Positions 3,848 through 5,683 of a DNA stretch of 13,714 nucleotides are shown here, one piece after another; position 1 is the stretch's first letter, and each line of letters begins with the position of its first letter. The position numbers were made by a program, and so were the translations under genes. Under the pieces are notes generated by a model, which did no database searches, was not told the DNA's origin, and worked only from the letters and a program-made list of their open reading frames with translations. This DNA comes from a virus (lineage: Duplodnaviria > Heunggongvirae > Uroviricota > Caudoviricetes), in IMG/VR virus record IMGVR_UViG_2693429599_000004; one strand, 5' to 3'.

Positions 3848-5480
3848 TCACTCCTCCGGACAGCTTCGCTGCCAGTTCTTTCAGGGTTGGCCGGGTCGTC
3901 TCTTCTTCCCGGGATTTTGCCAGTACAGCCAGATCAAGCTGCCAGCGTTGCACGGACACACGTAATGCCGCGTAGGCATACACCAGGCAGTCCAGCGCTT
4001 CGTTACGCCGCTTTTTGTTATCCCACAGCAGACGCATCTTTCCTTTTTCCCACTTCTCCACAAGCTCTTCCGCGACCAGTTGCTGCGCCTCTGTCTGCGA
4101 AAAAATCTCCGGATCATCAGGAAAACGGATGGCATACGACGTGGCTTCATCCGCAGACGTGGGATCGGCTTTCATACGGGCATAGAGAATTTCTTTTGCG
4201 GTGTCCGTCCCCACTTCACACAGATACACGCCCCGCTGATTGCGGGTTTTCGGCATGGTGATCACCGGCTTGCCATAGACAGATGCGCCTTTTACCGGCA
4301 GCACCCGGAAAACACCGTGTTTTTTTGACCTCTGATAGACAATTTCACCATCGATCCCCCCGGTGTCCCAGCAGACACGGGAAATGGTCATTTCGGTTCC
4401 GTCTGCATGGCAGTATTTTTTGTTGATCGCCGCATCCACACGTAACAGCGTCTCTTCCTCATCGGGACGGCCCATAATGATGATTTTATCCACCAGAAAA
4501 GCTTCCTCTCCCGGTGCCCATCCCCAGACATACATCTCAAAACGGTTTCGCTGCGAGTCAATGCCCGCCGTCAGATAAACCACCCGGGCTGGCACCGCCG
4601 CCGTGTAATGCACGACCTTATCCATCAGTACCTGGTGATCGAGTTTTTCGCCCACGGCCTCTTCCCAGGTCTCGCCCAGCGTGGTGTTCACAAAGGTTTT
4701 CAGGCCGTTGGGATCTTTCAGTGCATCCAGCCAGTCATAGACTATCTGTACCCAGGTGGTGAACGGACTGTACGCCGTCCAGATATGGAACGTGATGGAG
4801 CGCGGCGGCGGAATTTCATTATCCGCGGCGCTGAAAAACGTCAGACCGTCACGGGTCCACATCCCCGTGTTTTCACAGATCCACCGCCCGTTGCTCTGGT
4901 CAAGCTCAGACTGATGGATCACGCAGCCATGATGTTCACAGAGGTAGAAAACGCTTTCGGGGCTGTCCTTCTCCCATTTAAGGCCAAAAGGCGTGGATTC
5001 ATCGCCAAATTTCAGATACTGCTCCTCCCCACAGTGTGGGCAGGGCACATAAAAACGCATGAAATGCGCCGACTCGTTGGCCGCTTTTTCGATCTGGCAG
5101 GTGCCTTTGATTTTAGGCGTCGAGCCGCGAATGGATTTGGGCCATACAGAGCCCTCAATACGTTTATCCCCAAGCAGGGTTGGCGAACCCTCTTTTTCGA
5201 CATCCGGTTCGAACGAGGAAAGTTCGTCATAGCAGACCACGTCCACGGATTTTTCACGGTAGTTTTTAGCGGCAGCCCCGCCCAGGCACCAGAAGCCCAC
5301 GCCCGATGAAAAACGTTTCAGCGTGAGGGTATTATCACGATGTTTACGCCCAAACCACGGTGCAAGATCGAGTAAAACCGGCACATCCCTGATCGTGGGT
5401 TCCACATGAGATTTCATAAAATCTTCAGCAGCAGAACCCCTGACTCTGCCAGGCGGTGATGGTCCTGACATCAACGCCAA
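3831..5480 (-). CDS. A: Terminase large subunit (lambda gpA-like), 5'-truncated; likely non-functional
   Basis: Recalled gpA similarity from [12 protein letters not shown] (about lambda residue 100) to the C-terminus ([89 protein letters not shown]). The track start is TTG; the first 18 or so residues are out-of-frame junction sequence and about 95 N-terminal residues are missing. Confidence 0.85.
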
Positions 5481-5514
5481 AAATATCGGCCAGTTTTTTC
5501 TTATTGACGTTCAT
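5425..5514 (-). pseudogene. nu1: Terminase small subunit (Nu1) N-terminal remnant, 29 codons, fused out of frame to the A fragment
   Basis: [26 protein letters not shown] matches the lambda Nu1 N-terminus (MEVNKKQLADIFGASIRTIQNWQEQG), then runs into a stop. ATG lies 181 nt from cosN (191 in lambda). Confidence 0.65.
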
Positions 5515-5683
5515 ACACTCCCCCGGGAACCAGAAAGGATCTGAAAATGGCGTTTTCTAACAAAAACAGCCTTTGTCAGATCCTTTTATATTTTTAAAAT
5601 TCTATTGATAATCAATCAGTTAAAAAGAAGAAGAACGGATCTGATTTTTCCCTAAAAATTTTCATAAATAGCGAAAACCCGCG

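Follow-up and report, generated by a model that had tools for sequence, protein, structure and literature searches.

The DNA analyzed here (the window) is the entire 13,714-bp short-read contig CYFI01000043.1 of the Escherichia coli draft assembly GCA_001283785.1; contig L003 is 100% identical to it. It holds the late region of a defective prophage resembling lambda and phage 21. The genes lie on the minus strand in the order esterase, holin, lysozyme, Rz-like gene, cos, nu1', A', W', J', lom, and stf, where primes mark truncated genes. Comparison by blastn with E2348/69 shows that all portal, head, and tail genes separating W from the C-terminal end of J have been lost. Lambdoid gene order, loss of particle-forming genes, and an inactivated terminase together identify the element as a defective (cryptic) lambdoid prophage. 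The features around the terminase locus are collected in Table 1.

Several other genes of the window deserve mention. Upstream of the esterase gene, which belongs to the SASA family, an Rfam scan placed the sRNA family STnc100 and two phage-borne tRNAs (Arg-tct and one with a cat anticodon) on the minus strand at 12303-12492, 13189-13265, and 13366-13441, typical cargo of lambdoid late regions. The tail-fibre gene (1133-2452, minus strand) encodes long collagen-like Gly-X-Y repeats and is followed by a short gene for the fibre C-terminal domain. At the far end, a type III effector gene of the NleB/SseK family (92-685, minus strand) is interrupted, encoding 197 amino acids in the window versus 326 in contigs L010 and L012. 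The interruption is presumably due to IS1, whose terminus the contig end at 1-96 resembles (ggtgatgctgccaactta..., minus strand).

Table 1. Features of the terminase locus and its surroundings, in window coordinates
Feature	Position	Strand	Basis
cosQ-like heptamer GGGTCCT	5719..5725	-	Upstream of cosN; aligned with lambda right end
cosN cohesive-end sequence GGGCGGCGACCT	5684..5695	-	Equals lambda and phage 21 bases 1-12
cosB, three R-like repeats	5527..5644	-	Repeat search; R3/R2/R1 layout as annotated in phage 21
nu1' remnant ORF, 29 aa (26 Nu1 codons, then F-C-C, TGA)	5425..5514	-	Translation; Pfam Phage_Nu1; alignment
Deletion junction	5434..5436	-	blastn against L001; junction inspection
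A' remnant, gpA residues 109-642	3831..5435	-	Translation; alignment; Pfam
ATG, gpA Met115	5415..5417	-	7 nt after nu1' stop; Shine-Dalgarno duplex -1.0 kcal/mol; gene-caller start of 528-aa product
Crossover interval between prophage types	3882..4062	.	SNPs against L002, L004, L005 and L010, L012, L013, L014
W' (57 aa), truncated, fused to J C-terminal end	3674..3847	-	Pfam gpW positions 3-50 of 66; blastn against E2348/69

A lambda-type cos site precedes the terminase genes. It comprises the heptamer, which we take to be cosQ, the 12-base cohesive end, whose counterpart at bases 1-12 is annotated as cohesive ends in the phage 21 record, and three cosB repeats, of which the middle one is inverted. 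The repeats R3 (5627-5644), R2 (inverted; 5576-5586), and R1 (5527-5544) carry the core motif TCAGATCC(G/T)TT, and cosB shows 100% identity to its counterpart in the intact prophage L001 (NZ_CP115324.1). By these comparisons, the cos site (cosQ, cosN, and cosB) is complete and untouched by the deletion described below. While cosN is identical to that of lambda and phage 21, the R repeat sequences differ from those of both phages, which suggests a third Nu1/cosB specificity class that would be common to many E. coli prophages.

The small terminase subunit (TerS) binds the cosB R sites through an N-terminal winged helix-turn-helix, and both TerS and the large subunit (TerL) are required for assembly at cos (PMC4856287, PMC7229814). 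In the window, the gene for the small subunit is reduced to a stub. Its ATG at 5514 lies 181 nt past the first base of the cohesive end, behind a strong Shine-Dalgarno sequence (GGGGGAG; duplex energy with the anti-Shine-Dalgarno, -8.6 kcal/mol). The 29-amino-acid product aligns with residues 1-26 of the Nu1 proteins of lambda, phage 21, and L001, after which three out-of-frame codons lead to a TGA at 5427-5425, as the first-pass annotation had read it. The peptide matches positions 1-27 of the 164 in Phage_Nu1 (PF07471) with an E value of 9.5e-12 (45.3 bits; cut-off, 30). Since the DNA is also 100% identical to that of an intact prophage over 366 bp, this match is not due to chance. The N-terminal helix-turn-helix segment, which recognizes the cosB R sites, is thus present in the product, and the domain as a whole is incomplete: the loss of codons 27-182 has taken the rest of the DNA-binding domain along with the self-assembly region and the gpA-binding C terminus. 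No plus-strand ORF of at least 40 amino acids and no Rfam family overlaps 5420-5520, and the Rfam scan found no family at or near the nu1-A deletion. A promoter and terminator scan of 5200-6300 gave four promoter-like sites against 1.8 +/- 1.4 expected, not usefully above background.

The stub ends where a deletion joins nu1 to A. The annotated terminase small subunit of L001 has 182 amino acids and its gene overlaps that of the 642-amino-acid large subunit. In pairwise blastn, window positions 5800-5435 correspond to L001 6001-6366 at 100% identity, and 5442-3700 correspond to L001 7124-8866 at 99.66% identity, so that L001 6367-7131 is absent. The missing 765 bp comprise nu1 codons 27-182 (156 codons) and A codons 1-108 (108 codons); comparison with E2348/69 gives an identical 765-bp gap. 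The loss of the rest of nu1 and the 5' part of A had been recognized from the sequence and estimated at about 0.7 kb, which is borne out, whereas the share of A had been put too low, at about 90 codons. At the junction, nu1 codon 27 becomes TTC and A is retained from Ser109. The first-pass annotation had placed the start of gpA homology near residue 95; the FMKSH stretch of the remnant corresponds to residues 114-118. Although 765 is a multiple of three, nu1 and A are read in different frames, and the fusion is therefore out of frame.

The two parental sides, CAGGGGTT and CACGGATT, form an imperfect repeat matching at 6 of 8 positions. Their only exact overlap is the TT at 5436-5435, and the C at 5434 is the first base specific to A. 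We rejected homologous recombination through longer repeats at the deletion ends, since they share just this imperfect repeat with its exact TT. Relocation of the deleted segment was likewise rejected: its DNA and the two protein segments that it encodes give only chance-level hits within the window. Nothing that we found contradicts the deletion itself.

In TerL proteins, the ATPase occupies the N-terminal domain and the nuclease occupies the C-terminal domain (PMC4856287, PMC7229814). The A' remnant retains the second in full and the first in part. It matches positions 3-286 of the 294 in GpA_nuclease (PF20454) with an E value of 4.8e-71, a coverage equal to that of the intact protein, while its match to GpA_ATPase (PF05876) spans positions 67-247 of 247, compared with 2-247 in an intact relative; the first 66 positions are gone. 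An alignment with lambda gpA and phage 21 gp2 is gap-free before column 533, so that lambda numbering is valid for the motifs. Walker B (YDE, 177-179) and the GST motif at 212-214 are kept along with the complete nuclease domain. The P-loop-like KSARVGY(S/T)K at residues 76-84, KSARVGYTK here, falls in the deleted DNA together with the rest of residues 1-108. We take the Walker A motif of gpA to be K76-S83, within this same KSARVGY[ST]K stretch, and we assume that the first ~48 residues of gpA bind Nu1. A PDB sequence search with the intact gpA homologue gave no match and no gpA-type structure, and a literature search on the gpA ATPase residues Y46 and K84A returned nothing relevant.

Whether any protein is made from A' depends on its translation start. 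The A' frame, which differs from that of nu1', runs from 5435 to its stop at 3831; it forms part of a 549-codon ORF (5480-3831) that begins with 15 codons of nu1 DNA in a different reading frame and is terminase A thereafter. For the in-frame starts at 5480, 5474, 5471, and 5417, the Shine-Dalgarno duplexes reach only -1.0 to -1.5 kcal/mol, compared with -5.9 for the native A start; A' thus has no start of its own with a ribosome-binding site. Exact-protein look-ups found neither the 546-amino-acid form starting at ATG 5471 nor the 549-amino-acid form starting at TTG 5480; only the 528-amino-acid form starting at ATG 5417 is on record. This ATG is the sole plausible re-initiation site for A', and weak re-initiation there, yielding a 528-amino-acid protein, is conceivable from its position just past the nu1' stop. 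No in-frame start has a usable Shine-Dalgarno sequence, and none can bring back the deleted part of the ATPase domain with its P-loop. Because the 528-amino-acid protein lacks the P-loop and, by our assumption above, the Nu1-binding N terminus, the element would be unable to cut or package its own DNA. With Nu1 cut to 27 of 164 profile positions as well, we strongly infer that the element's own terminase is inactive, in agreement with the earlier reading of the packaging enzyme.

We propose the following course of events. One illegitimate-recombination event would have removed nu1 codons 27-182 and A codons 1-108, sending the nu1 frame into A out of frame, to a stop after three codons. Late transcripts would then yield a 29-amino-acid Nu1 stub with the helix-turn-helix stretch, stripped of the rest of the DNA-binding, assembly, and gpA-binding regions. 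They would give at most a little gpA lacking residues 1-114, through re-initiation at the ATG 7 nt past the stop. Such a protein, devoid of the Nu1-binding N terminus and the P-loop, would not be expected to cut or package the element's own DNA. The deletion is very probably a single recent event of this kind, an instance of ordinary prophage decay in a few related isolates rather than of domestication.

The distribution of the junction agrees with a narrow origin. The region at 3700-5800 is present in 4,483 of 5,426 complete E. coli genomes by megablast, and in 1,852 of them at a coverage of at least 80%. Among the best 25 records listed, all align in two pieces spanning 2,866 bp against the 2,101-bp query, the best at 99.8% identity. 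A junction-spanning megablast against the same 5,426 genomes gave half-matches and no full match, and scans of the GTDB species representatives with a junction 40-mer and with a 24-mer found none. The 528-amino-acid product occurs on five contigs in a collection of ~15 billion proteins. The identical 24-nt junction is found in L002, L004, and L005, contigs of three other draft assemblies under two WGS accession prefixes (CY.. and JHRU). Over 2.4 kb, the deletion carriers are 0-3 SNPs apart. Between A' and the intact L001 allele, 3 of 1,604 bases differ (0.19%), causing P535S and two synonymous changes, and the remnant has no further stops or frameshifts. These comparisons point to one recent event in a narrow lineage as the origin of the deletion allele.

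The second lesion of the element lies between W and J. The junction is at ~3689/3690, where W is cut at about codon 52 and continues into the last 166 codons of J (3177-3677, minus strand). The 57-amino-acid W' product occurs on 20 contigs, and the W'-J junction is more widespread than the nu1-A deletion. It lies downstream of intact nu1 (169 amino acids) and A (642 amino acids) in L010 and L014, and downstream of another lesion, the 844-bp deletion described below, in L012 and L013; conversely, the 765-bp deletion occurs together with full-length W in L002, L004, and L005. As each is found with the other locus intact, the nu1-A and W/J deletions have, on these contig comparisons, separate histories. 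The first-pass annotation had taken the two together as marks of one old remnant.

The window unites both lesions because its contig joins two prophage types into a mosaic. Upstream of the crossover interval, it has the SNP pattern of a trp-adjacent prophage type that bears the 765-bp deletion; downstream, it has that of a type carrying W'-J' and nleB. Namely, it agrees with the L002 type between 13417 and at least 4062 and with the L012 type between 3882 and 97, which places the switch in a 180-bp interval at the 3' end of A. The same switch is found in L015, a contig beginning at the equivalent of window position 4283, and both parental types lie on separate contigs (L002 and L012) of one sister assembly, GCA_001283665.1. 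That resident lambdoid prophages recombine with one another is well documented (PMC2669165). Real recombination between two prophages and a short-read chimera across the near-identical A-W stretch are equally simple explanations of the switch. Given this mosaic structure, the nu1-A deletion and the W'/J' junction do not necessarily share one DNA molecule in the isolate, and the two should not be read as one history. In practical terms, a prophage called on a short-read contig can combine segments from more than one resident prophage.

The sister prophage type has suffered a deletion of its own at cos. Comparison of L012 (1587-1588) and L013 (522-523) with L010 (2926-3769) reveals an independent 844-bp deletion, which takes cosN, cosB, all of nu1, and ~55 A codons and leaves a 582-amino-acid A ORF. 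Its left end lies 3-5 bp from the top-strand nick of cosN. One may speculate from this cosN-proximal end point that terminase cleavage initiated the deletion. Taken further, loss of cos, nu1, and the 5' end of A could be recurrent in the co-resident defective prophages of this lineage, driven by terminase acting on chromosomal cos sites. The 844-bp deletion has the pattern expected from cos cleavage in situ, resection, and end-joining; still, we consider the recurrent-loss reading unlikely. If it were true, inactivation of terminase or cos would be selected or directly caused in nonexcising prophages, and a helper terminase could cut the cos site of the window remnant, mobilizing the adjacent effector-bearing DNA.

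The first-pass annotation regarded the element as an old, domesticated remnant. An ancient deletion would mark a long-resident cryptic prophage comparable to DLP12 of K-12. The two elements are indeed alike: DLP12, also a defective lambdoid prophage, has kept its lysis cassette, ylcI, and the packaging-gene region but lost its morphogenesis genes, and a deletion has destroyed the large terminase gene, leaving the analogous layout of nohD and the aaaD pseudogene. The head and tail genes lost between W and J and the presumed IS1 insertion in the effector gene would also fit great age. The arrangement of the remnants is the opposite. In DLP12, nohD, the Nu1 homologue, is full length, and A is a short 5' fragment, aaaD (~300 bp), whereas the window has a 26-codon Nu1 stub and keeps the 3' 83% of A, followed by W. 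Great age is at odds with the low divergence from the intact allele, where a single one of the three changes is nonsynonymous, with the lack of secondary lesions, with the near-identity of the carriers, and with a very narrow distribution, five contigs and 0 of 5,426 complete genomes. The more widespread W'-J junction is found with intact nu1-A, so the nu1-A deletion probably came later in that lineage. An ancient origin is, in our estimation, quite unlikely.

Domestication in the strict sense would mean that a new role beneficial to the host has preserved the truncated gpA, a protein that would still have its whole nuclease domain, half the ATPase domain, and the C terminus that binds the portal. 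The 1.6-kb A' frame is open, and the ATG 7 nt past the nu1' stop permits re-initiation. However, an open frame is uninformative when just three bases differ from the intact alleles, and for the same reason the divergence is too low for a test of selection. Neither retention across lineages nor selection on the remnant was found, and there is no sign of conservation or new function; the allele is confined to those five contigs, with none in the complete genomes, and A' has no usable Shine-Dalgarno sequence. Moreover, the nuclease activity of lambda TerL requires TerS and assembly at cos (PMC7229814). We regard a domesticated role as very unlikely.

Could the junction instead be an assembly or sequencing artifact? 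Chimeric joins are conceivable in a draft contig that combines two prophage types. Against this, the identical junction recurs within near-identical flanks in L002 (a 122-kb contig), in L004 (115 kb, under the other WGS prefix), and in L005, and the two sides share only 2 bp, leaving no repeat for an assembler to collapse. An artifact is highly improbable. That the 549- or 528-amino-acid ORF represents a terminase family of naturally shorter length, with the Nu1-like peptide a mere coincidence, as the plain gene-caller label for the 528-amino-acid ORF might suggest, can practically be dismissed: the peptide matches Phage_Nu1 and its DNA is that of intact nu1, the ORF begins at position 67 of the ATPase profile, members of its 90% cluster listed without a "partial" mark have mostly 642 amino acids, and the short form is absent from all 5,426 complete E. 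coli genomes.

Apart from the deletion, the locus follows the plan of lambda nu1-A and phage 21 genes 1-2: cosQ, cosN, and cosB (R3, inverted R2, and R1) come in an identical order, followed by nu1 at ~180-190 nt from the left end, with A overlapping the end of nu1. A' shares ~95% DNA identity with phage 21 gene 2 and, in a four-protein alignment, 67% identity with lambda gpA. Unlike these phages, the window lacks the 765 bp from nu1 codon 27 to A codon 108, and its cosB R repeats differ. The deletion has little wider importance; the 528-amino-acid ORF deposited by gene callers as "terminase large subunit (Gp2)" is a pseudogene remnant, and the annotation needs correcting.

The intact cos site nevertheless remains a possible substrate for a matching terminase from another prophage. 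In the O157:H7 strain Sakai, nu1 of the prophage Sp4 is disrupted by an IS element, yet Sp4 DNA was packaged; the terminase of Sp14, a prophage with an identical cos, is the probable agent (PMC2669165). Sp4 resembles the window element in being a defective prophage with an intact cos and a terminase inactivated through nu1. It differs in that its lesion is an IS insertion, whereas that of the window is a deletion that also takes the 5' end of A. Sp4 is a precedent both for packaging of such remnants in trans and for recombination between resident prophages. The cos site of the window may likewise be cleaved in trans by the terminase of a helper prophage, which would leave room for packaging of the remnant as in Sp4.
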